Shown here: positions 11,793 through 51,939 of the stretch, piece after piece
Numbering within the stretch: position 1 is the first letter of the stretch
How the letters are laid out: the number at the start of each line of letters is the position of its first letter
DNA from: an uncultured Methanospirillum sp.
Lineage (GTDB): Archaea > Halobacteriota > Methanomicrobia > Methanomicrobiales > Methanospirillaceae
NCBI GenBank assembly: GCA_964637135.1
Contig: CAZWTX010000010.1
Location: 1-64,000 of the forward strand
DNA: 64,000 bases
Direction of reading: 5' to 3'
Program-made: the position numbers and the translations under genes
Notes under the pieces: generated by a model
What the model was told of the DNA's origin: nothing
What the model saw: only the letters and a program-made list of their open reading frames with translations
Database searches by the model: none

Positions 11793-11808
11793 TATGAGCC
11801 CTCAGTTC

Positions 11809-11850: not shown

Positions 11851-12444
11851 GACTTCCAAATTAGGTTTGGGTGAAATTTGACAATGAAGAAAAAACTCAG
11901 GAAAACAAAAGTCTGGACAACAATTCACCAGAAAAACCTGAATCAATCTGACCGGGTATACTCTATCCAAAACCAGACCTGACCATCGGATCTCCATCCA
12001 ACAGGATGAGTTGATACGTTGTACGGCATGAAAGGGGTAGAGTGAGAAACATATTCCACATGAAAAATCATCACTCCTGATGACAAATTTCTTACCCGGT
12101 TCCACTACAACAGCGACCGAAGCGGAACATTTCAGATACGAATGGGGATTGGGTGGATCTCACCGGGATCATTGATATGGGCGTATCTGTGGATACATCC
12201 TGCAGTGATGTGATTCAGTTACAATCAATCCGGTTCATGACATCCCGGTGGATCGATATCAATCAATTCCGGTCCGGCTGCCAGAAGGGATGAGTACCGC
12301 GAAATCACGGAATGAGGAGAGCGTAAGGTAATTATCCGTGTCCGTTCCTGAATGAAGTCCAACCACCGGTTGATGACTGCTGTCTCGGGGATAACGGATC
12401 ATCCGGAAGTTATATTCAGAAAGAATGCCATCCAGGTGATATTC

Positions 12445-12957
12445 ATGGGAAATTATGTTCTGATCGGGTTGCCAGGCGCTGGAAAGAGTACTCTCGGAGT
12501 AATCCTTGCAAAAACACTTGGAATGAAATTCATCGATACCGATCTCGTAATACAGGAAAAAACCGGGAGATTTCTCCAGGACATAATTGACACACAGGGG
12601 CCGGAGGCGTTTCTGAAGATCGAGGAGGAGACGATACTCTCGCTGAAAGCGGACAATACGGTCATTGCCACGGGGGGGAGCGTTGTTACCGGTCAAAAAG
12701 CAATGGAACACCTGAAAAACGGGAGCATCGCCATATACATACGAATCTCCTTTGAGGAGATGGTTCACCGGTTACATAATATTAAAACCCGGGGCATTGT
12801 CCTGATTCCCGGTCAGAATCTTCGCGATTTGTACGAACAACGGATTCCGCTGTACGAGAGGTATGCAGATCTCTGTATCGATTGTTCGGATGACGATTTT
12901 GAGGTTGTTGTCGAGAGAATCGTTAATTCCCTTCATACCACCCGGGGAGGGATCTGA
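12445..12957 (+). CDS. aroK: Shikimate kinase, bacterial P-loop type
   Basis: LIGLPGAGKSTLG, FIDTD, VIATGGSVV, R.PLYE.YAD; ATG at 12445 preceded by AGGTGA. Confidence 0.88.
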   Translation: MGNYVLIGLPGAGKSTLGVILAKTLGMKFIDTDLVIQEKTGRFLQDIIDTQGPEAFLKIEEETILSLKADNTVIATGGSVVTGQKAMEHLKNGSIAIYIRISFEEMVHRLHNIKTRGIVLIPGQNLRDLYEQRIPLYERYADLCIDCSDDDFEVVVERIVNSLHTTRGGI

Positions 12958-13189
12958 TTATCTTATGATACCTTGAACCCGGATGACAGAGGGTTGTCCA
13001 GAAGATGGAGAGAGGTCATGCCGTTGTATCGGCGATGGCATTATATTGCCATTCATTCACCGATGATATATCTCCCGGTCAGGACCTTACAAGAAATCCC
13101 CCATACAGGTACCAGGTGTCCGGGATGATGGTTACCGGCTTGAACCCATCCATCATCCATCTCACGAATCCCCACCTGATCCCTACCCT

Positions 13190-14800: not shown

Positions 14801-14826
14801 GGTTGTTCGTCCGGTTAATGGATGGA

Positions 14827-17800
14827 TTATACTCCGAAACTCATCCCGGAGAGGAGCATTTCATCAGCGGTCTGGGCAAGATTCTGGGTCTTGAGGAAGG
14901 TGGTCTGGTCCGGATGGATGACCTCAACTGCCTTGAGATTTCCTACCTGAATTCCGACCTGGACACCCTCACCCCAGAACGTGTGGGAGAGCTGCTTTCC
15001 GGAGAGGACGACATTCAGGGCCCTGGTATTGTTATTGATGGTAACCGTGGCATTCAGGTCCGGACCGGTCTTGGAATAGGTGTAGAGATCGCCAGTCACA
15101 CTCGTCGGGGCATCGAAGGAGACGTCAACTCCGTTCAGCGTGATCCTGACCGGCATGGTTGCATTCACCGTTCCGGCGGTCACCCTGCCTCCGTTCAGCA
15201 TCATGGTGCAGGTATCCTCGTTATCGCCCAGGTACCGGATGGTTCCATGCATCGTTGCGTTCTGGAGGGAGAAGACATCGTTGGTGATGCGTTCATCAGC
15301 TCCTGACCAGGAGATCGACTCGGTTCCGGTCATCAGGAGGTCGTCGTCTATCGAGAGGTTCTTGCCTCCGATACCGATTCTCACGATGTTTGATTTGACT
15401 CCTAACCGTGCCAGATCCTCTACCTGGCTTGCAGTAAACCACCACTTGCCTGATCCGAGATCCACTCTCAGGTGAGATACCCCGTTGGTTGCATCCTCGG
15501 TGGTGAATGCTATCTCGTGATCAGATATGATGGTCCGGTTCCCGACCATCGACCCGAACGGGAAGTTAATATCGCCTACCCTGACCGTGACCGGACGTTT
15601 CAGGTGCATTGCCGTGGAACGGTTGAATCCGGCAGGAATTGTCCCCTGTATCTTAATCTGGTTGCCGGGAGCGGCGTCCTGAACGGCAATGATGGCCGTG
15701 TCCACGACGTCTGAAGATGTCTTGCCAAAGAAGGCCCGCAGGGTTGAGAGTTCGGTGTTCACGGTCGCATTCATTACCGGGGAGGCTGAGTCGGTGAGAT
15801 CAAGGCCGTATCCCTCCCAGTGGAGGAACTGGTAGCCGTCTGCCGGAACAGCCCTGACCTCTCCGGTCGTTCCTTTCCGGATACCACCCTTCGGGAGCGT
15901 GATGGTTCCGGCCCCGGCAGGAATGACATTTGCGTGAATCTGCTCATCGGTAGATGATTCTTCGTTGTAACAGCCCTGGGATCTATCCGCTGCCAGGAGG
16001 TTATACGTCAATAACCAGGGCTGATACCCGGAGAATGTATCCGGAACCCATGGAACCTTTCCTTTCCCGTTCGGGGTGAGGATCATCGGTTCAACCTGAA
16101 TCGTGTCATACCCGCAGACATCGTCATCTGCTTCTTTCATCGACCATTTAAACGCAATTCCCTGGTTAATGGCATTGGTGATCGTCTTCTCGTCTTCATA
16201 ATCGAATGAGCCACCAACTCCAAATCCCATTATACGGACACTCGTCTCGACATCGCCATCGACCTTCTGGGTGTTACTGGTCTCGGTTGTCATCTCGAAT
16301 TCGGTGGTCTGTTGGATACCCATACTCCACTCCAGGTTATTTCCAAGTGAGGTTGCAGTGAAACTCCCTGCATACGGACTCTGTGTCCAGTCACGATCTA
16401 CCCAGCCACCTGACCAGGAAGCCCAGTCCCATTCATTAAAGTTATCAAAGGCCGGAGAGTTTCTCATACCGGCAAGCGGTCCGGAAGTGGGTGGACTGGT
16501 GATATTATACCCGAGGGCGTGTGATGATACCGGGCTTGACGGACTGATCGTCGTGAGATAGAGAATCTCCGGGTGGTCCGGATTGAGAACCCCGTTATAA
16601 TCTGCGTAATTATATGCATGGGTTACCAGGTTTGGTGCCAGATACAGGATAAACCCGTTCGAATGATCTCCCATGCTACAATGGCTGATCGTGTCTATGG
16701 TTTTTTGTGAGAACTCTGCCTCGTTACTATCCGAGGTTTCTACCATCGCGGATGCAGATGCATCAAGACCCACCCGTTTTTTGAGGAACTTGTTCTCATA
16801 ACTGACAGTCGCCTTTGCAGATTCAGATCCACCGGTTTCAGTCACCTGCGAGTCGGTTTTACTCAACTCAACCTCTGAGGTCACCTCCATTCCGTCACAT
16901 TCATAGCCGTTATATGCGAAGGGAGGAGCACCATCGACAAATCCGACTGGAATAGAAAGATTACCATAGGTATTGAAGTCACTCTGGGTATCAAAGGAAT
17001 TAACCGTGTTATTCACGATAAGCATATCTGAATTGTAGAACGTGAGATACGCCCATTCAGCCTGTATTCCGTAATTCCAAGTCATCGAATCTTGAAACCC
17101 GAGTAAACAATAAAGAACCTCACTATTTTCCGAGTTTTCGATAGGGAGATTTATGGCTGTTTTCGTCACATATCCACACCCGATCGCATTATTAATAACT
17201 TCGGGGCAAGGAACCTTGATCTGATTTTCTACCCCCCAGGAATTTGTGGGAAATGAAGAGACATCACATGTATAGGTGATCAGCGGTGGTGTGTATACCA
17301 GATGAGCATCACCACAGACGATCGCATTAATATTGTTCACACCGGTTGGGTTTTCCTGATAGGAACCTGCGGTCAGGAAGACTGCTGAAGGTTTTCCCTT
17401 ATAGGTGTTCACCCAGGTATTCTGATCTATCAATGTCTTCTCGCCATAGTAGTTATTCGGACCAATGAATGAGGTTTGAACGGTATCGGCAAAGTCATAG
17501 GCCCAGATGATTACCGGCTCATCGGTATACATGTGGGTGGTTACCATGACATCATAGATTTCGGTGTCCGGTACTGGTGAGAATCCCGGACGGCTTGAAT
17601 CATTATTGGTGAGACTATATACCGGCTGGGCAGGCACTACAGATGATGTTCCTTCGAGATCTTCTATCGATATGAAAAAGACATCCAGATACGCGGTAGA
17701 GCCACTGGTAATTTTCCGGATTAAATATACTCCGTCGTCGGTACTACAGACCTGGAATAACTTTGGATTACTTCCAGCGTTATCCCAGGCATAATTGGCG

Positions 17801-18291
17801 ATGGTCCTTTTTGCCCCCCAAGCTCCGGACCAACCAGTTCCTTCAGGTTGCAGGGCGAACGAATCTACACTCGTCTGGCCGGTTGAGAAATCATACCCGA
17901 AGATGTAATTTACCCCGTTGATATACGCACTCCTGAATCCGGCAGGGCAGGGATTCCCAATCTCTCCACTAATTGTCAGAGGCGACCCGTCCAGGACTTG
18001 AAACTCCGGATGACCACCAGAATTTGCTGCTGTGACTTTTAATACGTCTGTATGACTTGTTTCTTCGGTATTTCCATATTCATACCATTTGGGAGTTTGA
18101 ATTGCCAGATAGCCAGGCGCCGGTGAAAAGATGGAGAATGCCGGATATGTATCGGGATACTGACCATAAGCTATAGCCTGTGGCCCCATAAATTCCGCTA
18201 TTACCGGCGATACCCCAAGCAGGAGTGCGATCGCCACTAGTCCTAAAACAATACTCAGTCTCCGCCAACTGACCGTTTTTTTGCCTGACAT
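14827..18291 (-). CDS. Large secreted protein, paralogue B (beta-rich, InlB B-repeat-like domain); candidate pore-forming or surface protein
   Basis: Likely start ATG 18291 (MSGKK, matching MSGLK of the paralogue); signal peptide; GAGTI..VPADGYQFLHWEG B-repeat-like domain; co-linear with 18671..22132. Confidence 0.8.
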   Translation of the reverse strand: MSGKKTVSWRRLSIVLGLVAIALLLGVSPVIAEFMGPQAIAYGQYPDTYPAFSIFSPAPGYLAIQTPKWYEYGNTEETSHTDVLKVTAANSGGHPEFQVLDGSPLTISGEIGNPCPAGFRSAYINGVNYIFGYDFSTGQTSVDSFALQPEGTGWSGAWGAKRTIANYAWDNAGSNPKLFQVCSTDDGVYLIRKITSGSTAYLDVFFISIEDLEGTSSVVPAQPVYSLTNNDSSRPGFSPVPDTEIYDVMVTTHMYTDEPVIIWAYDFADTVQTSFIGPNNYYGEKTLIDQNTWVNTYKGKPSAVFLTAGSYQENPTGVNNINAIVCGDAHLVYTPPLITYTCDVSSFPTNSWGVENQIKVPCPEVINNAIGCGYVTKTAINLPIENSENSEVLYCLLGFQDSMTWNYGIQAEWAYLTFYNSDMLIVNNTVNSFDTQSDFNTYGNLSIPVGFVDGAPPFAYNGYECDGMEVTSEVELSKTDSQVTETGGSESAKATVSYENKFLKKRVGLDASASAMVETSDSNEAEFSQKTIDTISHCSMGDHSNGFILYLAPNLVTHAYNYADYNGVLNPDHPEILYLTTISPSSPVSSHALGYNITSPPTSGPLAGMRNSPAFDNFNEWDWASWSGGWVDRDWTQSPYAGSFTATSLGNNLEWSMGIQQTTEFEMTTETSNTQKVDGDVETSVRIMGFGVGGSFDYEDEKTITNAINQGIAFKWSMKEADDDVCGYDTIQVEPMILTPNGKGKVPWVPDTFSGYQPWLLTYNLLAADRSQGCYNEESSTDEQIHANVIPAGAGTITLPKGGIRKGTTGEVRAVPADGYQFLHWEGYGLDLTDSASPVMNATVNTELSTLRAFFGKTSSDVVDTAIIAVQDAAPGNQIKIQGTIPAGFNRSTAMHLKRPVTVRVGDINFPFGSMVGNRTIISDHEIAFTTEDATNGVSHLRVDLGSGKWWFTASQVEDLARLGVKSNIVRIGIGGKNLSIDDDLLMTGTESISWSGADERITNDVFSLQNATMHGTIRYLGDNEDTCTMMLNGGRVTAGTVNATMPVRITLNGVDVSFDAPTSVTGDLYTYSKTGPDLNATVTINNNTRALNVVLSGKQLSHTFWGEGVQVGIQVGNLKAVEVIHPDQTTFLKTQNLAQTADEMLLSGMSFGV

Positions 18292-18310
18292 ACTTCCTTT
18301 CCCTTCCTGC

Positions 18311-18342
18311 TGCCGGAATGGTGTTCCCCAACCATTCCGACA
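18311..18342 (-). other. 12-bp stem-loop in the putative 5' leader of paralogue B
   Basis: Transcript strand TGTCGGAATGGT-TGGGGAAC-ACCATTCCGGCA, 12 pairs including one U-G, 20 nt before the ATG. Confidence 0.6.
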
Positions 18343-18670
18343 AAGAATCGATAAATGCTCGAAATAAGAGTGATTCACGCACCATCCGGTGAGTGCGCGA
18401 TTCTCTCTTATGGTGTGATTCTATATTTTGAACATTATATAATTGCCTATATTTATCCTATAAAATATGTCAGAGAATTGCACATATTTTTCATATTCTC
18501 TCAAATTTCTGTTATTTTGGTTTGATTCAGGTATTATTCTCCTTGATAAAATCTATTATCTGGTTACCGGTAGTGTGTTCAGACCGGATATCCGGAAAAA
18601 AAGTGGGAAGAATTTTTGATCTGCCTTATCGGCAGATCCGGGATCTCTCTCCTGTCCCGATAATCTCCTA

Positions 18671-21600
18671 TCAGAAACTCATTCCCGAAAGAAGGGTTTC
18701 TTCTGAAGAGTGGGCAAGATTCGGTGTCTTCAGGGCGATCGTCCGGGCAGGATGGATTACCGACGAGGCTTTTGCGGTTCCGATCTGAAGGCTCACCGGC
18801 ACCCCGGTCTCCCAGAAGCGGTGAGAGAGTTTTTTACCCGATAATTCGACGTTCCATCCCTTCGTATCATTGTTGATCGACACGGTGGCATTCAGGTCCG
18901 GACCGGTCCGGGAATAGGTGTACTGGTTCCCGTTCACCGAGGATGGTCCGGAAAGGGCAAGTTCAACCCCGTTCATCGAGAATTTGACCGGCATCGTTGC
19001 ATTCACCGATCCGGTGTTCAGTTTCCCGCCGCTGAGCATGAGGGAACTGGTCCCTGACTCATCTCCCAGGTACCGGATGGTTCCCCGGACCGTTGCATTC
19101 TGGAGAGAGAATACATTGTTCGTGACCAGTTCGTCGGCTCCTGACCAGTCAATCGACTCGGTTCCGGTCATGAGCACGTCATCCGTCACCGAGATGTTCT
19201 TACCACCGATACCCATCCTCACGATGTTGGATTTTACCCCGTATCCGGCCAGGTTCTGTACCTGGTTAGCCATGAACCACCACTTACCTGATCCGCGGTC
19301 TATCCTGAGATGGGAGACACCCTGTGTCGGATCCTCGGTGGTGAACGCGATCTCGTGATCGGATATCACGGTCCGGTCCCCGACCGTCGGGCCGAACGGG
19401 AAGATGAGATCTCCGACCCTGATCTCAACCGGTGATTTGAGGTGCATGATGATGTGGTTATTAAATCCGGTGGGAAGGGTTCCCTGGATTTTAACCTGGT
19501 TTCCGGTCGAACCATTCCGGACTGCAATAATGGCCGTGTCCACAAGACTCGACGAGCTTTTCCCGAAGATGGCACGGAGGGTTGACAACTGGCTTTTCAC
19601 GGTCGCATTCGTAACCGGAGAGGCAGAATCGGTGAGATCGAGGCCATAAGCCTCCCAGTGCAGGAACTGGTACCCGTCCGCCGGGATCGCCTGAACCTGA
19701 CCGGTCATCCCCTTTGCGATTCCTCCTTTCGGCAGGGTGATGGTTCCGGCATTTGCAGGAATGACACTTGTCTTGATCTTCTGCTCGATTGCAGATGCCC
19801 CGAGATTGCATCCTTCAGACGGATCAGCTTCGATGAGGTTGTACGTCAGGAGCCAGGGCTGATATGCAGAATATGTCGGGGGTACCCAGGGAACCGGTTT
19901 TCCTGCGATTGGCGTGAGAAGAATCGGTTCAACCCGGATGGTATCATACCCGCAGACATCGTCATCGGCGACTTTCATCGACCAGTGGAAGGATATTCCC
20001 TGGTTAACCGCATTGGTGACCACGTTTTCTGCCTCCCAGGTATACGATCCGCTCGCTCCGAATCCCAGAACCTTCGCACTCGTCTCTATCTCGTTCTCGA
20101 CTGTTGTTGTCTGGCTGGTCGTTGTCGTCATCTCGTATTCGGTTGTCTGCTGGGACCCGAGACTCCACTCCAGGTGATCTCCGAGAGAGGTCGCGGTAAA
20201 ACTCCCTGCATACGGACTCTGTGACCAGTCACGGCCACCCCATCCTCCTGACCAGGAAGCCCAGCTCCAGTCGTCAAAATCATCAAAGTACGGCGATTTC
20301 ATCATTCCGGCGAGCGGTCCTGATGTTGGCGGACTCGTGATATTATACCCCTGAATATGGGAGGTCAGGGGGTTTGAGGGATCCATCTTGGACAGGTAGA
20401 GAATCTCCGGGTTATCAGAGGGTAGATTTCCTTCGTAATCGGCGACATTATATGCATTCGTTATCAGGTTCGGCGAGAGATAGAGAATATATCCATATGA
20501 ATGGTTCTCTCCCATACTGCACCGGCTGAAGGTATCAGTCGTCGTTTGCTTAAATTCCGTCTCGGTACCGTCCTTGTTTTCAATGGAATAACTGTATCCG
20601 GCATCTACGCCGACCCGTTTCTTCAGGAACTCATGTCCATAACTGACTGATGCCTTTGCTGTGGAAGAGCCGGATGTTTCTGTTGTTTTGGTATCCGATT
20701 TACTCAGCTCGACCTCTGATGTCACCTCAACGCCGTCACATTCAAACCCGTTGAATGAAAACGGAGCGACACCATCGACAAATCCGACCGGTATTGAGAG
20801 ATTACCATATGCGGTGAAGTTGGTGGAGGTATCGAATTTCCCCTGGGTACTGTTCGGGATTAAGAGATTCCCATCCCAGAACGTAAGAATAAAATTGCCA
20901 TCCTGGTAGAAATCGTCGGTATATTTTTTGTCGTCAGGATCGTAGGTGAATCCGACCAGGTAACATGACTCACTATTCGCAGATCCGACGATCGGGGCAA
21001 CGATGGGGAAGACAGTAAACCCATTATCTGCCATGACTAACGGGAATTCCCCGGATGGCATACCAATAACTACCTTTTGCCAGGTATTTGATCCGAAAGA
21101 GGTGATATCGCATGAGTATGTCCCTATTGCAGAAGATTTGGTATTCTCATAATCACCACAGGCGATTGCATTGATATTGTTCGTATGGAAGGGATCTTCA
21201 GCATAACACCCTTCGGTGAATGAGACCGTTCGTGGTTTTCCACGGAAGAGGGTTGTCCAGGAATTTTTATCGATCAATGTCTTCTGACCGTATCCATTCG
21301 GTCCGATATACCAGGTACATACGGTCTGACCGGAATCGCCTGCCCAGATGAATACAGGATTATCCGGATCCAGGTGAGTAGTAACAAGGCCGTCAAAGAG
21401 TTCGGTATCCGGTACCGGGTTGAAACCCGGACGGCTTGAATCATTATTTTTGAGTTGGTATACGGTCTGATAGGTTAACTGGTCCTCTGTCCCCAGAAGT
21501 TCTGCCAATGGAATGAACGAGATATCAACATAGGACCCCGCAGAGTTTGTGAACCTGCCAAAAAGGTACACTCCGTCATCTGAACCGAATACCCTGAAGT

Positions 21601-37464: not shown

Positions 37465-40014
37465 ATGTCAGCAGGCTCCCGGATCCTCCTTTTCTTGATC
37501 CTTCTTATCACGGTTCCAATTCTTACCGGGGCAGAAGTCAATGAAAATTCGACATTTCTGACTGGTGAGAATCCCGGTGAAATATCTGGTCCGGACCAGG
37601 TCATCCCGTCAGTACCCGATAACGGGGTCGAAGGCGGGGAGACCGGGGATGATATGAATCTGGAAGAGGAGGAACTGCCAGCGGACAGCGTGGACACTGA
37701 AGATGCAGGTACAGAAGAAGACACGAACCTGATAATCACCGATAATACAGAAACACCCGGAGAAAACAAAGATCCTGTCACAGTAACCGATCCTGAAACT
37801 ATCGCTCCGGAAGAGGAAATTCAGGAAAAAATCGACGAGAGGATTGAATCAGCATATTCAACCCTTCTCACCTCTTCTCCCCCGGTAATTGAGCAGGATC
37901 CGGATAATGTAAATGATATTCCTGGGGATACCTACGAAGGGGGAGATCCGGAAGATTTCTCCCTCTCCACTTCTTCATCTGATAATTCAGACACAACCAC
38001 CGTTGCTGATGAGATGGAAACCCTCGCGACGACCACCCCGTTTAAAATCGATCCGTCAACCATGAACACCGCTGGTGGCGGGTACAGCCAGACAACCGGG
38101 TACGGATGGATTGACGGCGGAGGGAGCGAGAACTCATATTTCCGGATCACCCTGTCTTCGATAGCAGAATATCCGGTAGAGTTTCACCTTGTCAGCAGTT
38201 TCACGACAAAGGCGATGTATGCCATCCTGATCCAGGCATCATACGTGACTATCAGCGGTATTGATCTCACTGCATCATCGACCGGATCATCTGAGCAGGT
38301 TAATACTATCACCCATACCGGCACCGGGGGAGCCATCACAGTAGAATCCGGGTACACCGGGGTTAAACTGGTGAATGTCGATGTCGATGCATCAAACGGT
38401 CCGGCCGTAAAGGTTGACGGATCATCGGTTGATATCATCGGAACGGATAATCCTGATGCCTATCTCACCTCGTACAACGGGGGGGCAACCAATGAACACT
38501 GGGGAACCAGCCTCACTTCAACAGCAACAAACGGATACGGATACGGGCTGCTTCAGCAGTCAACATCACGGCCCTCATCGATTACGGTCACCGGGGATGG
38601 AGGAGGAGGAGTTTCAGTATCCGGCTCTTATACCGGAGCAGAAGTCAATCAGGGAACTCTGGCTCTGGGCGGGGATAATATCACCATTACCGGTACAGGA
38701 TCTGCATCCACAAAAGACAGCGGCGTGACGGTAATCGGCACAGGCACCCTCACCTCGACCGCAACGAACACCCATATTACCGGACAGGAGTATGGGATAT
38801 CCGCAAATACCGGAAGAATCTCGATCACAGGAAGCGACAGCAGGATATCCGGGGGACGGAGCGGTATTTACCTGACAGGGGATCGGGGATCCTCTGGAAC
38901 CGGGGGAGTCACCATCGGTGAGGATGTCGGGGTATCCGGATCGACCGGGTATGCCATCGAACTTGACGGCCCGGCCAATTATGTAGGGGACAGGGCAATT
39001 ACCCTCTCAAACTCATCAAATCTCGACGGCGGACTCGGGAAGACCGGTGGTGCCCCGGGTTCAGGGAATGAAGTTATATCAGATAATGCCGCAGTTACCA
39101 TCAGTTCCGGAACCGGTTCACCTGATTACCAGGTAACGATTACTCTTTCAGCTATCAGCGGCTCGGAACCTTACAATCTCCGTATCCTGGACGAAGAAGG
39201 GGATCTCATCTACCTGATCGATGACTGGGAAAACCTCCCGGCAGGAGTGACATACGACGATATTGCCGGAACAGTTTCGTTCTCATCAGGAACATTCTCG
39301 ATCTATACGGCAGTAAAGGAAGAGATACCTGCACCTGCACCGGGAGGATCAGAACCAGAATCAGTCGAAGCAGTATCCATGGAGAGCGAAGAGGAGGGTG
39401 AACCAACCCTTGAGGATGTGGCCCAACTCGAAGGAGAACTCGCGGATCCCTCAGAAGTAGTGCGTGAGGCTGCTATCGATTCAATCCATGGAATCATCTT
39501 CCTCTCTGGTGCATCCGTGGAAGTCAAATCTGCGGCTGCAGAAGCATTGGCCGATTCGGTTCGTTCTGCACCGGCGGCAGCTTCCATTTCCGGGGTTACG
39601 ATCCTTGGAGCGATCCTTACGTCCACAGATGTATCAGCAGAAGCAAAGGAGAGTACCCGGGCAGCATTATATCTAGTTTTCACGGGAGAGAGTTCCCCGG
39701 AGATCAAGTCTGCCGCAACGGTTGCTGTTGCCGGTAGCCTGGCGGCAAACCCGCTCCTTGCGACCGGGGATGATATCAGGATTCTGTCTGTCGCCGCAGG
39801 TTCCGGGGAAATTACCGGGGATGCAGCACAGGCATCGCTGGACACCACCGTCACATTACTAAAGACAGGATCCGTCGAGACAATCACAATACAGGAACTC
39901 ATCACCCTCCTCGTCCAGGAGTACCCGGATACTCTCGATATGTCCGGACTCATGGCCCTTGCAGACGATCCCCTTATTGATCCTGAAATCCGGGATTGGA
40001 TATCCGGGTTATAA
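37465..40014 (+). CDS. Secreted protein: acidic linker, G/S/T-rich beta-helix-like region, C-terminal HEAT-like helical repeats
   Basis: Signal peptide; repeated I.G...GI strands; LADPSEVVREAAIDSI, EVKSAAAEAL, PEIKSAATVA. Confidence 0.7.
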   Translation: MSAGSRILLFLILLITVPILTGAEVNENSTFLTGENPGEISGPDQVIPSVPDNGVEGGETGDDMNLEEEELPADSVDTEDAGTEEDTNLIITDNTETPGENKDPVTVTDPETIAPEEEIQEKIDERIESAYSTLLTSSPPVIEQDPDNVNDIPGDTYEGGDPEDFSLSTSSSDNSDTTTVADEMETLATTTPFKIDPSTMNTAGGGYSQTTGYGWIDGGGSENSYFRITLSSIAEYPVEFHLVSSFTTKAMYAILIQASYVTISGIDLTASSTGSSEQVNTITHTGTGGAITVESGYTGVKLVNVDVDASNGPAVKVDGSSVDIIGTDNPDAYLTSYNGGATNEHWGTSLTSTATNGYGYGLLQQSTSRPSSITVTGDGGGGVSVSGSYTGAEVNQGTLALGGDNITITGTGSASTKDSGVTVIGTGTLTSTATNTHITGQEYGISANTGRISITGSDSRISGGRSGIYLTGDRGSSGTGGVTIGEDVGVSGSTGYAIELDGPANYVGDRAITLSNSSNLDGGLGKTGGAPGSGNEVISDNAAVTISSGTGSPDYQVTITLSAISGSEPYNLRILDEEGDLIYLIDDWENLPAGVTYDDIAGTVSFSSGTFSIYTAVKEEIPAPAPGGSEPESVEAVSMESEEEGEPTLEDVAQLEGELADPSEVVREAAIDSIHGIIFLSGASVEVKSAAAEALADSVRSAPAAASISGVTILGAILTSTDVSAEAKESTRAALYLVFTGESSPEIKSAATVAVAGSLAANPLLATGDDIRILSVAAGSGEITGDAAQASLDTTVTLLKTGSVETITIQELITLLVQEYPDTLDMSGLMALADDPLIDPEIRDWISGL

Positions 40015-45305: not shown

Positions 45306-47564
45306 TCACCCCTGACCGTGGCTGTCGGCCTCAAAGACACGATACCGCCATCCTGATCCCGGAACGGCTATCTCGAACTCAACGCCGTTCCCGAAAATTC
45401 CCACTTCGCGGATGGAAATCTCGGTCAGGGCCAGAATCTCCCGGATCAGAAAGAGACCGAGTCCGGTATTTTTCCCATGGCCTTTCTTAAATATTAACTC
45501 CTTTTCAGCATCAGGTACACCAGAACCGTTATCGGCATACCTGATGATCAACGGCTCTCCCTCTTTCTCCGGGGGAGTGGCGGTGATCCGGATCTCCGTT
45601 ACATGCTCTCCGTGTCGGCGAGAATTCTCGATCAGGTTGTATATCACCTTCTCAAGCATCTGGTCTGCGTAGATCTCAAACCAGTCAACCGACGATATAC
45701 ATTCTACCCCATCAAGCAGACAGGTTATCAGCCGGGAATAGAGGATTGGTTCAATTCGTTGCCATATTGGTTCTTTGACGCCGAGCTCATCGTATTCTCG
45801 CGTAAACTCGATCAGATTCTGGATATCACTACTTGCCTGGCCGATTGCGAGGCAGGCTTTTTCCAGATCGGTGCCCTTGACAGATGGGGCAAAGAGATCA
45901 ACATATCCGCTTATTACCGTGATCCGGTTCAGGATATCATGCCGTGTGATACTGCTGAGGATTCGGATCTTCTCCCCTGCCAGCTTGAGGGCCCTGTTTA
46001 CCCTGATCACCTCCTCCTCTGCCTTCTTCCGTTTGGAGATATCAATAAAACCGCTGATGATTCCTGCAATTGCTCCTCCCGCATCGTACCAGGGAGTGAA
46101 GATAGCAGTCGTCCATTTTGGCTCCTTCACCCGGGGGAACGAAACATATGAGTCGGCTATCGTTATTGCTTCCCCGGCAAGGACTTTCTCATAATTATCC
46201 CCTGCATCGGTCTCCCTCAGAAACGGAAACAGTTCAAACGGAGTTTTTCCGAGTGCATCCATTCTCATGACCCCGGTAAACATCTCCATCATCGGGTTCC
46301 AGTACCGGTGGCAGAGGGTGCGGTCGAGGACGCAAATTCCAATCGGCAGCTGGTTGATGACTTCACGGATAAACTGCTCCTTTTCGGTGAGTTCTGCCTG
46401 ACTCTTCTGTAATTCGTTCAGGGAGAACCTGAGATCGTCTGAGATCGTGAGGAGATCCTCATTCATCCGGTTGAGCTGCTGGTTTTTCCGATCAATTTCC
46501 TCCCTGGTTCTCACCAGTTCTCCCCATGAACGGGCATTCATGATGGCGAGCCCGATAAACCGGCTCATCGAGAGGGCAAGGTTGAGGTACTCGCGAACCC
46601 GGTCCTGTTCCTGCACCCCGGATACCTCGAGGATACCAATAAGTTCGGCCTGATACCGGAGTGTCAGGAAAAAACCCGAACGATCAGGGATAAAACCCCA
46701 CTCCTCTCCCGCATACGCGAGAAGGGGCGAGGCGGCGGGATCCCCGCATACCTGGCCGGGGCTCATGAATTCTGCCCCGGGAATCCCGGCTTCAAACCGG
46801 ATGTACCGGACCGACCGGGGACCATACAGGGTCTCAAAGACCGTCAGGATCTTCCCAATCACCTCATCTTCATTGGTAATCTGGGCAATCCCGGACAGGA
46901 ATGTGATTGAAGCCATCTGCCTGGCAAGTTCTTCTCTGATCCGGAGGAGTCGTTTCTGAGATACTGAACGTTCGCGCCTGAGTTCCCATTTCGTTACCGC
47001 AAGATGTATAATGGCCTCAAGGAGAGATGTCCCGACCGACACCTTACGGACCGGTAGACCGGAAAATTCTTCAAATGAACGAATATCCTGCTCATCAACA
47101 GGGAGAATCCCGGTATCCACAATGGAGACACCCGTCAGGTTTCGGGAGAAAAAATCAGATCTCTCGTCGGGATTAAAGCCCATCAGGGATACATGATCTT
47201 TCCATTTTTTCATCCAGGATGGATACACGAGGTATGCACCGGCAGCGACCAGCGAGGAGATCTCATACGATGGGATCACGAGTTCAAGGCAGGTATCCGG
47301 GCCGGCATGGACAATCCTTTCTCCAAACAGCCCCTCCTCTGCGATCTGCCGTGTCCCGAAGAAGAGGCCTTCCGCTCCAGGCGGGAGCATCCGGTTGATC
47401 TGGTCTGCTCCCGTTACCAGCTCGTGGTGTGAACAACTACACATATGCGGATAAAAAACGGATTCAACCCCCTGCCACGCGGCTTTTTTCAGGACATGCC
47501 TGACCTCCGGTTCAAGAGTCTCGCAGAAGAAAAGACAAAGACCAGGTTTTTTTTCAGGTGACAA
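45306..47564 (-). CDS. Histidine kinase: DUF1638-like N-terminus, GAF-like, PAS, HisKA/HATPase
   Basis: Likely TTG start at 47564 overlapping the upstream stop; C..L..E, CLE, YLVYPSW..W, IVDTG, F.E..GLP; SITRHDILN, NLIENSRRHG, DNGSGV, TGLGLF; no TM. Confidence 0.85.
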   Translation of the reverse strand: MSPEKKPGLCLFFCETLEPEVRHVLKKAAWQGVESVFYPHMCSCSHHELVTGADQINRMLPPGAEGLFFGTRQIAEEGLFGERIVHAGPDTCLELVIPSYEISSLVAAGAYLVYPSWMKKWKDHVSLMGFNPDERSDFFSRNLTGVSIVDTGILPVDEQDIRSFEEFSGLPVRKVSVGTSLLEAIIHLAVTKWELRRERSVSQKRLLRIREELARQMASITFLSGIAQITNEDEVIGKILTVFETLYGPRSVRYIRFEAGIPGAEFMSPGQVCGDPAASPLLAYAGEEWGFIPDRSGFFLTLRYQAELIGILEVSGVQEQDRVREYLNLALSMSRFIGLAIMNARSWGELVRTREEIDRKNQQLNRMNEDLLTISDDLRFSLNELQKSQAELTEKEQFIREVINQLPIGICVLDRTLCHRYWNPMMEMFTGVMRMDALGKTPFELFPFLRETDAGDNYEKVLAGEAITIADSYVSFPRVKEPKWTTAIFTPWYDAGGAIAGIISGFIDISKRKKAEEEVIRVNRALKLAGEKIRILSSITRHDILNRITVISGYVDLFAPSVKGTDLEKACLAIGQASSDIQNLIEFTREYDELGVKEPIWQRIEPILYSRLITCLLDGVECISSVDWFEIYADQMLEKVIYNLIENSRRHGEHVTEIRITATPPEKEGEPLIIRYADNGSGVPDAEKELIFKKGHGKNTGLGLFLIREILALTEISIREVGIFGNGVEFEIAVPGSGWRYRVFEADSHGQG

Positions 47565-48585
47565 TTGGATAACTCCCGAACCGGGTTGCCGCTTCACGAA
47601 TCGCAAGGAGATTTTCATCGGGAACCTGGAGGGGAATCTCCCCGTGGTTATCGCTCAGGATAAACCCGCCACCAGGTGCTGCGATGCGGATGAGCCGGGA
47701 GACCTGGTCTGCTACCTCCTCACGGCTCCAGTGTACCATCGCTATCCCGTTCAGGTTTCCGATGATCCCCACCTTTCCCCCGGCCAATGCTTTTATCTCC
47801 GATATATTCTCACTTTCTCCAAAGGCGATGGCAGCGGTTCCGGTTTCAATAACCCGGTCAAGAATGGGAAGTACCCGGGCTGACGCGAATGCGGTTGCCA
47901 CCGGCCCGGGTATCTGTGGAATCACCTCCCTGGCCACACGCCACCCGGTCCGTTCGTATAGGGCCGGGGGGATGATCATCGGCGAGGAGACCGGGTCAAA
48001 GTAGATGATCGCATCTGCACCGGCTGCGATCTGGGCTTTTCCCCATGCAATACAGAACTCACTATTTATTGCAATAAGGCGATCAAAGCGCTCCGGATCG
48101 GTATACATCAGTTGAAGATATGCCTCAAACCCCATCTGCATCACCGGGAGGGAGAGGGGAGCGATGACAACTCCGAAGATGGGGGCATCATCGGGGGAAC
48201 CGGCCTTAATCAGGCGTATTGTCTCGAGCACCATCGCAAGGCACGCAGTCTCGTGGACCCGGGGAACCGTGATGGTATCAATAGCAGCCCCGCTCGTAAT
48301 GATCGGCCTGCCGCTGTTTGGCGGACCATCTTCACGGAACAGGATCGAGCCACCGAACGCCTCGAAATCAACCGCCCCGTAATGGAATCCGAAATAGGCA
48401 TCGGTTCCGTACTTCTCCCTGATATGCAACTGGCCCCTGGCAACATGGTCTGAGGAGGTAAAAAAATCCGCATGCCTGATCCCCAGATCTTTTGCAGCGT
48501 GCATTGTTGGGTTGAGCACGAGGGGCACCCGGTCAGGCTCCTGAAATCCGAGTGCCGTCATGATCCGATCCCGTGAGCTCATCAT
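47554..48585 (-). CDS. UroD/MtaA-CmuA superfamily protein (MT2-like)
   Basis: SSRDRI.TAL..EPDRVP, EAFG, AQIAAGADAI..DP.SS..I.P..Y, GNLN, GGGFILS. Confidence 0.88.
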   Translation of the reverse strand: MMSSRDRIMTALGFQEPDRVPLVLNPTMHAAKDLGIRHADFFTSSDHVARGQLHIREKYGTDAYFGFHYGAVDFEAFGGSILFREDGPPNSGRPIITSGAAIDTITVPRVHETACLAMVLETIRLIKAGSPDDAPIFGVVIAPLSLPVMQMGFEAYLQLMYTDPERFDRLIAINSEFCIAWGKAQIAAGADAIIYFDPVSSPMIIPPALYERTGWRVAREVIPQIPGPVATAFASARVLPILDRVIETGTAAIAFGESENISEIKALAGGKVGIIGNLNGIAMVHWSREEVADQVSRLIRIAAPGGGFILSDNHGEIPLQVPDENLLAIREAATRFGSYPIVT

Positions 48586-49220
48586 CGGAATCCCTCCAGA
48601 TCATGGATGGCCGGAATGACATCAGATGCTGTCACACAGACACGATCAGCTCCGACTTCGGCGCCAAGGCCGGGATCAATCCTGAACGGGGCTCCTCCGA
48701 CAATAACCCGGGTTCCGGTACCGGCCAGGAACGAGGTGACTTCCCTGACCTTCAGGGCTGACGGGAACATCAGGACAGAGATCAGGAGGATCTGGATGCC
48801 ATCCCTCGCAAGAAGCGGCAGGAGACCGGCGACGTCCTGGTGACCGTACCGCACCGGAGTATATCCCGCTGATTTTAAAACCGAGGAAACAATCCGCTCG
48901 CCGAGCATATGATAATCGTCAAGAACCACCGTTGCGATCCGGGTGTCTCGGCCGGGAAGCCCGGCCGGGTCAGGTATCAGGAGATCTATCGCCTCTTCGA
49001 TCAAGGTGCCGGCCATGTAGACCTGGGAAAGAGCAAGATTGCCTTCTTCCCAGTTTTGTCCTATCTCTTCAAGAGCCGGTACAACGAGGTAGTCGATAAC
49101 CTCACCGGGAGTGGTATCCTCAATGGCTTCATCGAGGATCTCACGGATAGTGACACGATCCATCCCGATAAGCGCTGAGACGAGTCCGGTCACCGCATCC
49201 TCCCGCAAAACGGTGGTCAT
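48582..49220 (-). CDS. Corrinoid (cobalamin-binding) protein
   Basis: Cap domain (PALEEIGQNWEEG..LSQV), DDYHMLG (DxHxxG), SVLM, VIVGGAPF, VGAD. Confidence 0.92.
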   Translation of the reverse strand: MTTVLREDAVTGLVSALIGMDRVTIREILDEAIEDTTPGEVIDYLVVPALEEIGQNWEEGNLALSQVYMAGTLIEEAIDLLIPDPAGLPGRDTRIATVVLDDYHMLGERIVSSVLKSAGYTPVRYGHQDVAGLLPLLARDGIQILLISVLMFPSALKVREVTSFLAGTGTRVIVGGAPFRIDPGLGAEVGADRVCVTASDVIPAIHDLEGFR

Positions 49221-49630
49221 GCACGGAGATTAGACGTTTTCGGGATATAAATATAGATCCCCATAGCGAGGCCATGAGGCGGTTACCAGCCAGGTACAGG
49301 ATACATCAGGCATACGGAGCCGGAATGAAAGGAAACAGATCGTGTTATCAATCTCCATTCCACCAATTGCCGGTATCATCCATTAAATCAGTTCAGGTCA
49401 TGGAGGCATGTCATGCCAGATGAAGATATGGTACCGTACAGAATACGGTTCTCTGCCCGCAGGGTCAGCAGGATAATCCCCTATAGCATCAAACCGATAC
49501 GGATCGTGGAAATCATCCGGTGCACAGGAATACCGGGTCAGCGAAACGATCCTCATTGTAACCAGCTGCAAAACCTCAGGGTTCTGGAACGGTCCGTAGC
49601 CGGAGCAGTTCTGTCCGTTGGAGAACATAC

Positions 49631-50008
49631 ATGCAGGTGATCAGGATTCAATCTCTTCCTCCGGTTGGGTATGTTGCACTCGGAGGATGCTGCGGGTCAG
49701 TTCTCAGGTTCCTGATCAGTGATCCCCTCCCGGTTCCAGCCGGGACATTCCTCGTGAACGTCACCGGATGTATCGCGATCGATATCCTGATGTACCACTC
49801 GATCTTCACCGGTGCCTTCAGCCGGGAGGCAAGGATGTTCCTCGGGTTCGGATGTATCGGATCCTTCACAACATTCTCGGCGTTTGCCACGGAAACAATT
49901 ACCTTCAGCCCGGTTTTTGGAGTGATCAATATCCTGGCAAACCTTCTCTGCGGACTGCTGGGTATCTTCATCGGCAGAACGATCGTGCTCTCTCATCGGA
50001 GGCCGTGA
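49631..50008 (+). CDS. crcB: Fluoride channel Fluc/CrcB, subunit 1
   Basis: VALGG..GSVLRF, GTFLVNVTG, G.IGSFTTFSAF. Confidence 0.88.
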   Translation: MQVIRIQSLPPVGYVALGGCCGSVLRFLISDPLPVPAGTFLVNVTGCIAIDILMYHSIFTGAFSREARMFLGFGCIGSFTTFSAFATETITFSPVFGVINILANLLCGLLGIFIGRTIVLSHRRP

Positions 50009-50361
50009 TGGAGAATGTCCTTCTTGTGGGGCTTGGAGGAGCGATCGGAGCCTCGCTTAGGTATATCCTCTCCGGGCTTTCTCCTATCCGGGGGATCCCG
50101 GCCGGGACAGCTCTCGTGAATATCTCCGGGAGCATCATCTTTGCATTCGTTGCCTTCTCACCATCTCCCGGGTCCGCCTATTTTCTCATCGATGCCGGAA
50201 TCCTCAGCGGGTACACCACCTTTTCAACCTTCAGTTTCGAGGTCTTCCGGATGCTGGAAGATCATGATTATCTCCATATGGCAGGTACCATTCTGATCAA
50301 TCTTGTCGGGAGCATCGGAGGGGCCTTTCTCGGCTATATCCTCATAACCCGGCTGGTATAG
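50008..50361 (+). CDS. crcB: Fluoride channel Fluc/CrcB, subunit 2
   Basis: ATG overlaps the upstream TGA (TGATG); VGLGGAIGASLRY, GTALVNISGS, GILSGYTTFSTF. Confidence 0.9.
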   Translation: MENVLLVGLGGAIGASLRYILSGLSPIRGIPAGTALVNISGSIIFAFVAFSPSPGSAYFLIDAGILSGYTTFSTFSFEVFRMLEDHDYLHMAGTILINLVGSIGGAFLGYILITRLV

Positions 50362-50371
50362 GAGGGGATCC

Positions 50372-50698
50372 ATGTTTGATGACGGAATGTTGCTCAGGAT
50401 GTACATCGCTGAGTCGGCAAAAATCGGAAAAAAGCCGGCCTATAAATTTCTCGTTGAATTCTTCCTGTCCAGGGGCTTTCCAGGATGCACGGTCACGAGA
50501 GGAATTACCGGGTTCGGCCATGAGCATACGATCCACACGGTTGATGTCCTCAACTTCTCGTTCGACCTCCCGCTGGTCATCGATGTCATCGATACCAGGG
50601 AGCGGATCCTTTCCATTGCCGAGGAGATCGAGCGTGAAGGATATGTAAAACACGGACTCATCATGCTTCAGGATGTCAGGATGAGTCGGAAAGCATAG
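50372..50698 (+). CDS. DUF190 (PII-like) protein
   Basis: LLRMYIAE, GCTVTRGITGFG, S.DLPLVIDVID; usual crcB neighbour. Confidence 0.88.
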   Translation: MFDDGMLLRMYIAESAKIGKKPAYKFLVEFFLSRGFPGCTVTRGITGFGHEHTIHTVDVLNFSFDLPLVIDVIDTRERILSIAEEIEREGYVKHGLIMLQDVRMSRKA

Positions 50699-50757: not shown

Positions 50758-51939
50758 CTAGAAATCGGTCATAATACGGAACTGATCGATTTCTTCCTTG
50801 TTGAGCTGTTCGAGGAACTCCTCTGCGGCATGTCTGACATCCTTACTTGCCGTGATTGCTCTCCCGACCACGAGGATATCAGCACCTGAAGCGAGGGCAT
50901 CTTTAACGACCGGGACACGGATACCGCCGGCTGTTGCCACCAGGAGTTTTCCGCCGGCAGCTTTTTTGATGGCTGAGATGTTCCCCCATGCATGGGCAGT
51001 ACTCTCGGCATCGATAGCCCGGTGTAGTTCGACGATGTGGGGTTTAACCTTCAGGCTCTTGATCAGGCCGACCGGATCAGAGACATTGAGCATATCGATG
51101 ACGGCATAGATACCGGTCTTGCGGGCCTCGGTGATCGCCTTCTCGATCGTAGAGATTGGGGCAAGTCCTGACATGACAACGGCATCGGCAGATGCATCAG
51201 AGGCCATACGTGCCTCGAGATTGCCGGTGTCCAGAATTTTCATGTCTGCAACGATGAATGCATTCGGTTTGACACTTCTGATCTCGGAGAGGACATTCAG
51301 CCCGAATTTCTTGATCAGCGGGGTTCCTGCCTCGATGATCAGATGATCATTCTCCGGGAGAGCGTTCAGAACGGCCTTGAGCTTGCCCATGTCAACGATA
51401 TCGAGGGCAACCTGCAGATATGGCGGATCCCACAACCGTTGAACCTTGAATCCCATGACTGCGTGAGCAGCACGGTCTTTCTCATTGATCAGGGTCTTTT
51501 CATCGGGGAAGTTTTCGAATGCACGGCTGATGGCAAGCCGGGTTGCACCATAGTTATACCGGTAGATCCTGTTGTAATCTGATGCATCCGGGTGGAGAAA
51601 GGCACTTGCAAGGATACAGATATCGTCCAGTTTCTTGCCGGCAAATACGCCGTCTTCAACAGAGTCTGCAACTGCCTTTGAGATCGCTGCCTGGACAGGT
51701 CCGAAAATCTGGTTGACCTGCCGCTCATTCTTCAGGGTCACCTTTGGAATAACCAGCGTTGCAGGTTTCGTAAGCAGATTCGGCCGGACTACTGCAAGAA
51801 GAGGAGTGTGACCGGCAGAGAGTTGGGAGAAGGCATTTGCAAAAGCCGTCCCGACCGGTCCGTTTTTATCCCCGACGATGAGGTCAATATGTGCCAGTTC
51901 TGCACCATCACCAATCAGGGCTTCGCCAATGAGATACAT
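50758..51939 (-). CDS. fae-hps: Bifunctional formaldehyde-activating enzyme / 3-hexulose-6-phosphate synthase
   Basis: GEALIGDG.E.AHIDL, GHTPLLAVVRPNL (Fae); LQVALD, IIEAGTPLIK, ADMKILDTG, VVGRAIT (Hps). Confidence 0.96.
   Translation of the reverse strand: MYLIGEALIGDGAELAHIDLIVGDKNGPVGTAFANAFSQLSAGHTPLLAVVRPNLLTKPATLVIPKVTLKNERQVNQIFGPVQAAISKAVADSVEDGVFAGKKLDDICILASAFLHPDASDYNRIYRYNYGATRLAISRAFENFPDEKTLINEKDRAAHAVMGFKVQRLWDPPYLQVALDIVDMGKLKAVLNALPENDHLIIEAGTPLIKKFGLNVLSEIRSVKPNAFIVADMKILDTGNLEARMASDASADAVVMSGLAPISTIEKAITEARKTGIYAVIDMLNVSDPVGLIKSLKVKPHIVELHRAIDAESTAHAWGNISAIKKAAGGKLLVATAGGIRVPVVKDALASGADILVVGRAITASKDVRHAAEEFLEQLNKEEIDQFRIMTDF

Follow-up and report, generated by a model that had tools for sequence, protein, structure and literature searches.

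We predict that three adjoining genes of an uncultured Methanospirillum sp., which encode a corrinoid protein, a protein with the URO-D/MtaA/CmuA fold and a soluble histidine kinase, very probably work as a signaling input. With moderate confidence, based on sequence comparisons, we assign them to an undescribed and widespread class of signal inputs, in which a corrinoid methyltransferase core appears detached from metabolism and is linked through a GAF domain to kinases, diguanylate cyclases, or HD-GYP proteins. The class would exist in DUF1638 and RACo versions. Sensing would rely on organometallic Co-C bonds or on the Co(I)/Co(II) couple, and DUF1638 would be a small four-cysteine domain for corrinoid reactivation or state recognition that can substitute for RACo. 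No description of the cassette was found in the literature searched, with most subscription papers beyond reach.

Gene organization

The cassette is on the minus strand of the window, the 64,000-nucleotide stretch of DNA that was analyzed. The gene for the corrinoid protein (48,582-49,220; 212 amino acids) is followed by those for the URO-D-fold protein (47,554-48,585; 343 amino acids) and the histidine kinase (45,306-47,564). The kinase gene has two candidate starts, a TTG at 47,564 (752 amino acids) and an ATG at 47,618 (770 amino acids). The first two genes overlap by ATGA at 48,582-48,585 and, given the TTG start, the second and third overlap as TTG/TGA at 47,554-47,564. All reading frames and overlapping stop and start codons were thus found where the first-pass annotation had placed them, and, as it had also claimed for MT1 and activator genes, no MT1, MT2, or activator gene adjoins the trio. 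The junction of the URO-D and kinase genes has identical letters in contigs from two other public runs (X2, 46,984-48,641; X3, 46,811-47,766), so the gene layout is not an assembly artefact. We rejected a fusion or frameshift at the run of eight A (47,549-47,556), as the genes are separate in relatives and the same letters occur in the other runs.

A putative archaeal TATA box, TTTATA (49,246-49,251, minus strand), is predicted from the sequence, 26 nt 5′ of the first ATG. Judged by general knowledge of archaeal promoters, this spacing makes a leaderless operon transcript possible. A scan for sigma-70 promoters and terminators gave matches at chance level only, and the RNA runs yielded no more than a pair of short contigs, one of 243 and one of 216 nt. 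The stretch was detected in bioreactor, wastewater, and sediment samples. An adjacent crcB pair was considered as a clue to halide handling and rejected because it is absent beside the cassette among the close relatives listed.

The corrinoid protein and the URO-D-fold protein

The stand-alone corrinoid protein matches B12-binding_2 (E = 1.7e-13 in a Pfam-type profile scan) and B12-binding (31.8-33 bits over two scans, cut-off 32.1). It has a four-helix cap and a Rossmann domain, and the three motifs that had been reported as intact are all present (DYHMLG, SVL, and VGG), as expected of a His-on corrinoid protein of the MtaC/MttC type (DxHxxG, SxL, GG, and the cap). The base-off/His-on motif is D102-x-H104-x-x-G107. 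Its best solved matches are trimethylamine and monomethylamine corrinoid proteins (E = 1e-27), and CarH follows at 5e-4. Cap residues W57, Q66, and Y68 are invariant in the family. The CarH signature consists of GxxW and an EH element ten residues after the Trp (PMC11796333). GxxW is found in the cap as G54-x-x-W57 and in 49 of 49 family members; in the eight corrinoid proteins of methyltransferases that were used as controls, the Trp position is always F or Y. At the EH element the sequence reads V67-Y68, with Tyr in 49/49.

The second protein was annotated as an MT2-like member of the UroD/MtaA family. The fold is clear (URO-D profile, E = 6.5e-53; best solved match of the family profile MtaA, PDB 4ay7, E = 8e-19); the MT2 identity did not hold, as the HxC...C zinc-thiolate ligands are replaced. 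Scores fall below every equivalog cut-off (MtaA, 80.5 of 400 bits; MtbA, 52.8 of 600; TIGR01463 MtaA/CmuA, 101.7 of 235). HICG and PGCG of MtaA align to AFAS and NHGE, and the zinc-site residues are A232-x-A234 ... D312-N-H314-G-E316. The ligand positions read A-x-A...H in this copy and H-x-A...H across the cassette family, where the second ligand is Ala in 50/50 and 120/120 relatives. His232 is missing here and present in 45 of 50 relatives. Surveys for B12-binding (55 genomes) and URO-D were useful only as a source of control loci; control URO-D regions of the same genomes keep HxCG in 13 of 15 cases and include no match to the cassette GAF profile. The pocket is strongly conserved (mean column identity 63%), with residues that differ from one sub-lineage to another. 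The protein shares 22% identity with CmuA and is on a separate tree branch. Zinc-free MT1 scaffolds occur in this fold; one report describes CdmB as such an MT1, with a substrate channel that brings haloalkanes to Co(I) (PMC13222342). The component missing from the cassette may therefore be an acceptor methyltransferase and not an MT1.

The histidine kinase

The kinase has the domain order DUF1638-GAF-coiled coil-PAS-HisKA-HATPase, and no transmembrane stretch was seen in its sequence. This agrees with the soluble multidomain kinase of the first-pass annotation. All domains are encoded on the minus strand: DUF1638 at 46,980-47,549 (residues 6-195; profile match and confident model), a cassette-specific GAF domain at 46,521-46,946 (about residues 207-348; fold match), PAS at 46,026-46,373 (profile scan), HisKA-type helices at 45,807-45,962, and HATPase_c at 45,360-45,659 (profile scan). 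The HisKA profile match is weak (E = 0.013), and H542 in the motif HDILN is the candidate phospho-acceptor; the H, N, G1, and G2 boxes of class I histidine kinases are all present. The GAF model (pLDDT 90.6) matches the GAF domain of PDE5A (Z 16.4, rmsd 2.2 over 138 residues). The kinase had no profile match to a PocR domain.

DUF1638 (PF07796) is marginal in this copy alone (27.7 bits, cut-off 27) and scores far higher in many relatives (e.g., E = 5.7e-15 in L012). A profile built with the window copy aligned DUF1638 over residues 6-195, and the best Atlas matches of the domain were all DUF1638 (0.86-0.87, support at the level of a lead). The family has four conserved cysteines (107/109, 102/113, 103/113, and 108/113), three of which are found here (C14, C42, and C92). 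With the domain model, Foldseek gave TM values of at most 0.44 among the matches listed and no clear relative. The best VIA match was the PrpR N-terminal domain (Z 7.8, rmsd 5.8 over 146), with none at Z of 8 or above. Such poor matches of a predicted model do not show that the fold is new, and they point to no function.

Catabolic partners in the host genome

The host genome (97.7% complete) had no match to MttB, MtaB, or MtmB, the three MT1 families searched. It contains one URO-D gene, MtrH in the mtr operon only, and one folP-like pterin-binding gene; no spare acceptor methyltransferase was found. The second methyltransferase of a three-component pathway is thus absent from the cluster and, as searched, not free in the genome. 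A single RACo gene is about 3 kb after cdhCDE-like genes, and its product may act on the cassette in trans. Of the cognate MT1 or activator that would have made this an ordinary methyltransferase pathway, only a candidate activator was found. The Pfam DUF1638 scan of this genome was insensitive and missed even the kinase's own copy.

Conservation of the cassette

The conservation that the first-pass annotation had named as a check was found: the three genes recur together in many phyla, with exchangeable outputs (kinase, hybrid kinase, or GGDEF protein). Among 52 related loci (type A), the corrinoid gene is 5′ of the URO-D-fold gene in 49 of the 49 with upstream DNA, and a fused DUF1638-GAF protein is 3′ of it in 42/52. 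The outputs in 40 scanned loci are 26 HATPase kinases (9 of them hybrid) and 10 GGDEF proteins, with no output recognized in 4. One locus, L005, has neither DUF1638 nor the cassette GAF downstream. By record titles, the hosts are mostly anaerobes and microaerophiles and include the phototrophs Thiocapsa, Oscillochloris, and Thiodictyon.

Signaling domains occur in 26 of 94 cassette neighbors, none of which matched MtrH, pterin-binding, RACo, or MT1 families at E<=1e-15. We saw no clue to the ligand among them, and none of the genes that recur nearby encodes a transcription factor, a transporter, or an acceptor. There are a few scattered, non-conserved redox genes (rubrerythrin, hemerythrin, FMN reductase, and nitroreductase). 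In L024 (phycobilisome-type match, E = 1.2e-5) and L006, the cassette adjoins genes for B12 proteins that have an additional domain at the N terminus. Within Methanospirillum, 14 of 24 genomes matched, one with the type B cassette described below. Seven close relatives (56-64% identity) have the same losses of His232 and the DUF1638 Cys in open frames, which looks like a sub-lineage change; given these losses, this copy may have reduced function.

A parallel cassette (type B) consists of a corrinoid protein, a URO-D protein with HxAG that keeps the His and the last Cys, RACo, and a GAF-output protein. RACo is found in 61 of 72 type B loci with downstream DNA, and two loci have unrelated genes next. 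Of 17 long RACo relatives, 13 have a kinase or GGDEF/EAL output, which is joined via the type B GAF in 12 cases, and HD-GYP outputs also occur among the cassettes. The type A and type B GAF domains align over 123 columns (prob 91.6); with an unrelated GAF set of six sequences as the control, the values were 59 and 4. In a tree of a smaller set, type B was unplaced and did not join type A/A'. DUF1638 adjoins RACo in one metabolic cluster (L218).

The first-pass annotation had DUF1638 reading the state of the corrinoid. This is doubtful, because four type A loci keep the GAF domain but lack DUF1638, 28 of 150 representatives with the GAF domain also lack it, and in type B its place is taken by RACo. 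From this pattern of loss and replacement, DUF1638 is more likely the activator or reset arm and the GAF domain the coupler. The GAF domain is also kept without RACo in nine type B loci.

Possible mechanism and alternatives

We tentatively propose, from sequence comparisons, that kinase output depends on the state of the cobalt, which a small methyl or alkyl donor alters. The corrinoid protein would hold the cobamide His-on, and the URO-D-fold protein would be an MT1-like scaffold, as in CdmB, that determines specificity. A donor, such as a halomethane or a methylated sulfur compound, would react with corrinoid Co(I). As no acceptor methyltransferase was found, the methyl group would be kept out of metabolism; it might remain on cobalt or be handed by the URO-D protein to an HS–-like nucleophile, giving a slow reset. 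DUF1638, in the activator slot, may help to reduce oxidized Co(II) and so restore Co(I), a role that RACo may have in the parallel cassette. The altered cobalt state would be relayed via the cassette's own GAF domain: state-dependent docking on the DUF1638-GAF head would switch the output, which is a kinase here and a c-di-GMP enzyme in some other loci. There is evidence against this model: the form reset by RACo is Co(II) and not methyl-Co(III), and an oxidation signal would therefore explain a RACo-kinase fusion equally well or better. Furthermore, 16 of 50 cassette genomes have no RACo match, and reset there would depend on the putative activity of DUF1638 alone.

The main rival, which we consider unlikely, is an oxidant or redox sensor. 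O2, N2O, NO, polysulfide, or polyhalomethanes would oxidize corrinoid Co(I) to Co(II), the RACo or DUF1638 in the activator slot would selectively bind the Co(II) form as the reader, a role close to that first proposed, and the URO-D protein would only shield the site or filter small molecules. Both activator-slot domains are fused directly before the GAF-output, the four DUF1638 cysteines could bind a metal or Fe-S center, and the largely anaerobic or microaerophilic hosts and the redox genes nearby are consistent with such a signal. According to one report, RACo, when complexed with CoFeSP, binds Co(II) and stabilizes it (PMC4934906). However, the activator slot is dispensable in the four type A and nine type B loci that retain the URO-D gene and the GAF domain, the pocket is more conserved than a shield seems to require, and the redox neighbors are few. 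It is improbable, though compatible with corrinoid, URO-D, and activator proteins forming a full minimal transmethylation set, that the first two genes encode a one-enzyme transmethylase (MtsA and CmuA are of this type) for detoxification or a small product, with the kinase GAF/PAS sensing product or substrate or merely regulating the operon. Kinases adjoining corrinoid methyltransferases are known regulators (mecA-D; MsmS, RdmS, and MA4377), MecA and the Methanosarcina kinases being thought to regulate their operons, and type B keeps the His and last Cys. GGDEF and HD-GYP outputs are a mismatch to simple operon autoregulation, the lack of any recurring transcription factor, transporter, or acceptor gene argues the same way, and the presence of an activator-type domain within the kinase itself would make little sense if the two were not physically coupled.

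We find it quite improbable that the system is a light sensor with enzymatic reset, in which methyl- or adenosyl-cobamide is photolyzed to Co(II) and rebuilt by the activator and URO-D protein. The cap GxxW, the B12 proteins with extra domains in L024 and L006, and the phototroph hosts would fit, but V-Y with an invariant Tyr replaces EH, methylamine corrinoid proteins are far closer than CarH, and the stretch comes from bioreactor, wastewater, and sediment samples. Least probable, and very much so, is that the family senses while this copy is degenerating or has lost the ability to bind a ligand or turn it over. It has lost His232, one DUF1638 Cys, and several family residues, and occurrence in the genus is patchy; against this, frames, overlaps, and kinase boxes are intact and the same losses are shared by the seven relatives.

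If sensing by a methyl or alkyl donor or by oxidation is true, many anaerobes, including hydrogenotrophic methanogens without methylotrophy, sense a small molecule in the dark by cobamide methyl-transfer or redox chemistry. To our knowledge, the known B12 signaling proteins (CarH and photocobilins) sense light. Dark sensing of this kind would account for the corrinoid and "uroporphyrinogen decarboxylase" genes that stand as orphans in such genomes; metagenome-assembled genome studies should then not take these genes as evidence of methylotrophy. The function of DUF1638 becomes directly testable, with GGDEF members in cultured isolates as a simple read-out.

Comparison with known systems

The cassette shares with MtaA/MtbA/MtsA and MtaC-type systems a URO-D TIM barrel paired with a cap and Rossmann corrinoid protein. 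Those enzymes have the HxC...C zinc site, whereas the cassette lacks it and its third gene encodes a signaling protein; MtaB, MttB, and MtmB were not found in the host genome. The haloalkane MT1s of CdmBCA (Acetobacterium dehalogenans) and CmuA (Methylorubrum extorquens CM4) also have a URO-D-fold partner of a corrinoid protein, and by analogy the first two genes may work like CdmB/CmuA. CmuA keeps HxC...C in the alignment, unlike the cassette protein, an acceptor enzyme of the CdmA/CmuB type is missing, and the likeness to CdmB is by description, not sequence.

The mec cassette of dichloromethane degraders (the PocR-kinase MecA, MecB, MecC, and MecGH) likewise groups kinase, corrinoid, and URO-D-fold genes, together with activator genes, and mecABC adjoin cfrAB in Dehalobacter. 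By description it differs in having PocR input instead of DUF1638-GAF, an MtrH-type acceptor (MecF), a DNA-binding regulator (MecD), and a catabolic role; neither MecF nor a MecD-like regulator was found among the cassette neighbors. In Phaeobacter, one report has DUF1638 co-fit with a RamA-like activator (10.1101/192971), and the stand-alone DUF1638 protein PGA1_c13340 is tied there to corrinoid reactivation, whereas the cassette DUF1638 is fused to GAF and kinase domains.

CarH, AerR, and photocobilins also use a B12-binding domain in signaling and have GxxW in the cap. The cassette differs in lacking EH and in keeping its B12 protein separate from the output and always with an enzyme-fold partner. 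In the regulatory hydrogenases HoxBC-HoxJ and HupUV-HupT, an enzyme-like metalloprotein detached from metabolism is the input of a histidine kinase. The cassette shares this design principle only, with no homology and with cobamide chemistry in place of NiFe and H2.

Organization of the cassette

The genome encodes a three-gene cassette on the minus strand: a corrinoid protein (gene 1, 48582..49220), a URO-D-fold protein (gene 2, 47554..48585) and a kinase (gene 3, 45306..47564). The three reading frames, two overlaps and corrinoid motifs of the first-pass annotation agree with the sequence. Pfam matches B12-binding_2 and B12-binding in gene 1, URO-D in gene 2, and PAS and HATPase_c in gene 3, whose proposed N-terminal DUF1638 scores 27.7 bits against a cut-off of 27. 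The GAF-like domain also proposed for the kinase is found in the predicted structure of residues 1-348 (pLDDT 90.6), where residues 208-348 match GAF domains (Z 16.4, rmsd 2.2, 138 residues aligned). Boxes H, N, G1 and G2 are all found in the kinase sequence, and a search of it for a membrane stretch found none. The gene 2/3 junction is identical in contigs from two other runs, and TTTATA lies 26 nt ahead of the first ATG of gene 1.

Two crcB (fluoride channel) genes and a DUF190 gene are divergent from the cassette (49631-50698, plus strand). The window also encodes a Fae-Hps fusion (50758-51939, minus strand), which is ordinary for methanogens, and an acidic 849-aa protein with an N-terminal hydrophobic stretch, possibly a surface protein (37465-40014, plus strand), for which Pfam returned nothing at E 1e-4.

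Distribution and outputs

A gene 2 scan of GTDB genomes found 52 loci (39-51% identity) of this layout (type A), in Methanomicrobiales, Methanomassiliicoccales, Desulfobacterota, Gammaproteobacteria, Chloroflexota, Bacillota, Myxococcota and others. The trio is conserved elsewhere, with the corrinoid gene immediately upstream of gene 2 in all 49 loci that have upstream DNA. A fused DUF1638 and GAF lies downstream in 42/52. Among the others, the two are on split genes in one, a contig end interrupts DUF1638 in one, four have GAF without intact DUF1638 (L001, L013, L036, L050), one has neither (L005), and three have no downstream DNA. Outputs of the third gene vary: the 40 third genes scanned (from 47 loci having one, near-duplicates and short pieces omitted) comprise 26 kinases (9 hybrid), 10 GGDEF proteins and 4 without an assigned output. 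As related genomes are non-independent, these counts describe breadth and do not amount to statistical support. Within the genus the distribution is patchy (gene 2 matched in 14/24 genomes, one of the 14 being type B, described below), and in Azoarcus KH32C the cassette is plasmid-borne. The cassette GAF profile matches 1,054 clusters (50% identity) at E<=1e-10; in the best 150 of these, the part N-terminal of GAF is DUF1638 in 122 and another part in 1, and GAF comes first in 27.

Some loci carry additional genes. A second kinase (HisKA_2), having the cassette GAF without DUF1638, is immediately upstream of the corrinoid gene in L014:5902-7257 and L049:6003-7277. The corrinoid frame of L007:157-3177 runs on from an upstream Cache-HAMP-MCP chemoreceptor, through either gene fusion or loss of a stop codon. 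Cassette-adjoining B12-binding proteins in L024:11642-12721 and L006:4624-5868 have an additional N-terminal domain; that of L024 has a phycobilisome-type match (E 1.2e-5), which suggests a photocobilin.

An optional slot between URO-D and GAF

In a variant layout (type A'), DUF1638 is stand-alone (L089, L114 and L229). A long gene is next in L089 and L114, a PAS/HATPase kinase in the former, and in the tree the type-A' URO-D genes group as sister to type A (support 98.9/96). One genome (G058) combines both layouts, A and A', in a stretch of ~17 kb arranged around long kinases (L089:1434-4920 and 11770-18787), with a hemerythrin gene immediately upstream.

Type B consists of corrinoid protein, URO-D protein, the reductive activator RACo and a GAF-output protein (L084, L116, a Thiodictyon plasmid), and was surveyed in 85 loci, 80 from metagenomes and 5 from genomes. 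Examples are L084:4959-11898, L116, L121:7332-12323 and L130-L214, with URO-D motifs HxAG and SSGCE and GAF-kinase, GGDEF or HD-GYP outputs. H-x-A-G occurs in 69/85 URO-D proteins, the remaining 16 not being read by the pattern. The corrinoid gene is upstream in 74/85 (10 contig edges, 1 not found). Where downstream DNA is present (n=72), RACo is next in 61, a GAF-output protein follows directly in 9 (motif read by eye) and other genes follow in 2. Thirty proteins behind RACo include 18 kinases, 3 GGDEF, 2 HD-GYP, 1 receiver, 1 with PAS only and 5 without a match. Kinase or GGDEF/EAL domains are fused to RACo in 13/17 long RACo relatives, 12 of the 13 with the type-B GAF immediately behind RACo; P0121-P0133 are RACo-GAF-output fusions. 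A single reading frame spans URO-D and RACo in L203:5905-8634, P0134 and P0135.

Type-A and type-B GAFs align over 123 columns (prob 91.6, E 8e-7), against 59 and 4 columns for an unrelated GAF with the cassette types, in a small control set. The invariant core in these comparisons is the corrinoid protein, a cysteine-less URO-D protein and a dedicated GAF; DUF1638 and RACo, on the same gene orders, share one optional slot between the latter two. The DUF1638 domain model has a pLDDT of 95.8, and the family has four conserved cysteines. In the accessible text of Price et al. (10.1101/192971), DUF1638 is co-fit and co-distributed with a RamA-like activator and given no specific function, an association repeated in the portion available of PMC12478193. 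Excerpts of the mec preprint and PMC9768040 assign MecGH to reactivation.

Altered metal-ligand positions in gene 2

Gene 2 had been described as MT2-like. MtaA HICG and PGCG, which we take to be zinc ligands, align to AFAS and NHGE, so it is not a standard MT2. The cassette family pattern is H-x-A-S-G ... D-N-H-G-E, with Ala at the second ligand position in 50/50 and 120/120 relatives, His232 in 45/50 and 119/120, and invariant His314 and Glu316. From this pattern, most members could have a different His/carboxylate metal site. Twenty high-scoring URO-D regions of the same genomes served as controls; 4 of them were cassettes and 1 HemE. The 15 left keep HxCG in 13, with RACo in 9 and an MtrH-like gene in 3; neither cassette GAF profile nor the kinase query (weak for bacterial kinases) matched any of them.

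The URO-D superfamily includes the MT1s CdmB, MtvB, OdmB, MtoB, CmuA and MecC/E, and CdmB is zinc-free, channelling haloalkanes to Co(I) (PMC13222342, available part). By this analogy, recognition of the donor is the better reading of gene 2, and the absent part would therefore be the acceptor enzyme.

Catabolic partners

Searches of the source genome (97.7% complete) for the MT1s MttB, MtaB and MtmB found no match. An activator gene is present: one RACo, ~3 kb behind cdhCDE-like genes (named by reading of sequences). This genome has one URO-D gene, one MtrH within the mtr operon and one pterin-binding gene, folP-like; of its other two B12-binding matches, one is a radical-SAM protein and the other a 365-aa protein whose sole match, at the N-terminus, is weak. 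The mtr operon holds two tandem MtrA-like genes (G000:C26:6812-8509).

Among 94 of 139 prepared type-A flanking proteins (cut to 340 aa, E<=1e-15), none matched MT1, MtrH, pterin-binding or RACo families, and 26 have signalling domains. A RACo match is absent in 16/50 cassette genomes, including the records of Thiocapsa marina and of Oscillochloris trichoides.

Two genomes from the genus of the source genome encode a corrinoid protein and a 418-aa URO-D protein (L115:3914-9072, G070; L117:4779-6635, G068), divergent in L115 from an MtrH-like methyltransferase and RACo. By sequence, these genes make up a full Mto/Cdm-type set (MT1, CP, MT2 and activator) in an organism presumed to be hydrogenotrophic, and may permit use of a methyl donor.

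Proposed function

The cassette is real and conserved, and is probably an undescribed kind of sensor. We tentatively favor a mechanism in which the URO-D protein would let a small methyl or alkyl donor reach Co(I). Docking on the DUF1638-GAF head would depend on the cobalt state and would in turn control the kinase, and DUF1638 would help recover Co(I). The strongest rival, which we consider doubtful, is oxidant sensing; an activator-type domain would be its natural reader because RACo binds and stabilizes Co(II) (PMC4934906, in part). An unlikely reading is a small transmethylase whose regulator is co-transcribed or senses the product, for which MsmS, RdmS and MA4377 may be compared (10.1101/2021.03.04.434021, accessible sections). 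Taking the cobalt-state readings together with the product-sensing part of the transmethylase reading, a signal-input role for the cassette is likely.

Light sensing is improbable: GxxW of the CarH signature is present but EH is missing (signature from the available part of PMC11796333), and the accessible portion of PMC8717448 mentions neither methyltransferase nor URO-D. Decay of the window copy, which together with seven close relatives is without His232 and the third of the four conserved DUF1638 cysteines, is very improbable.

Comparison with known systems

A description of the cassette was not found in the literature searched, a scope that excluded subscription papers and several supplements. 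New here are the side-by-side evidence for GAF as the constant part and for a slot common to RACo and DUF1638, the metabolic URO-D genes as a control set, and the His-less sub-lineage that includes the window copy. The parts belong to known families, and the cassette differs in defining features from MT2, the three-component pathway, CarH and mec. It would work like an MT1/corrinoid pair employed in the manner of a regulatory hydrogenase.
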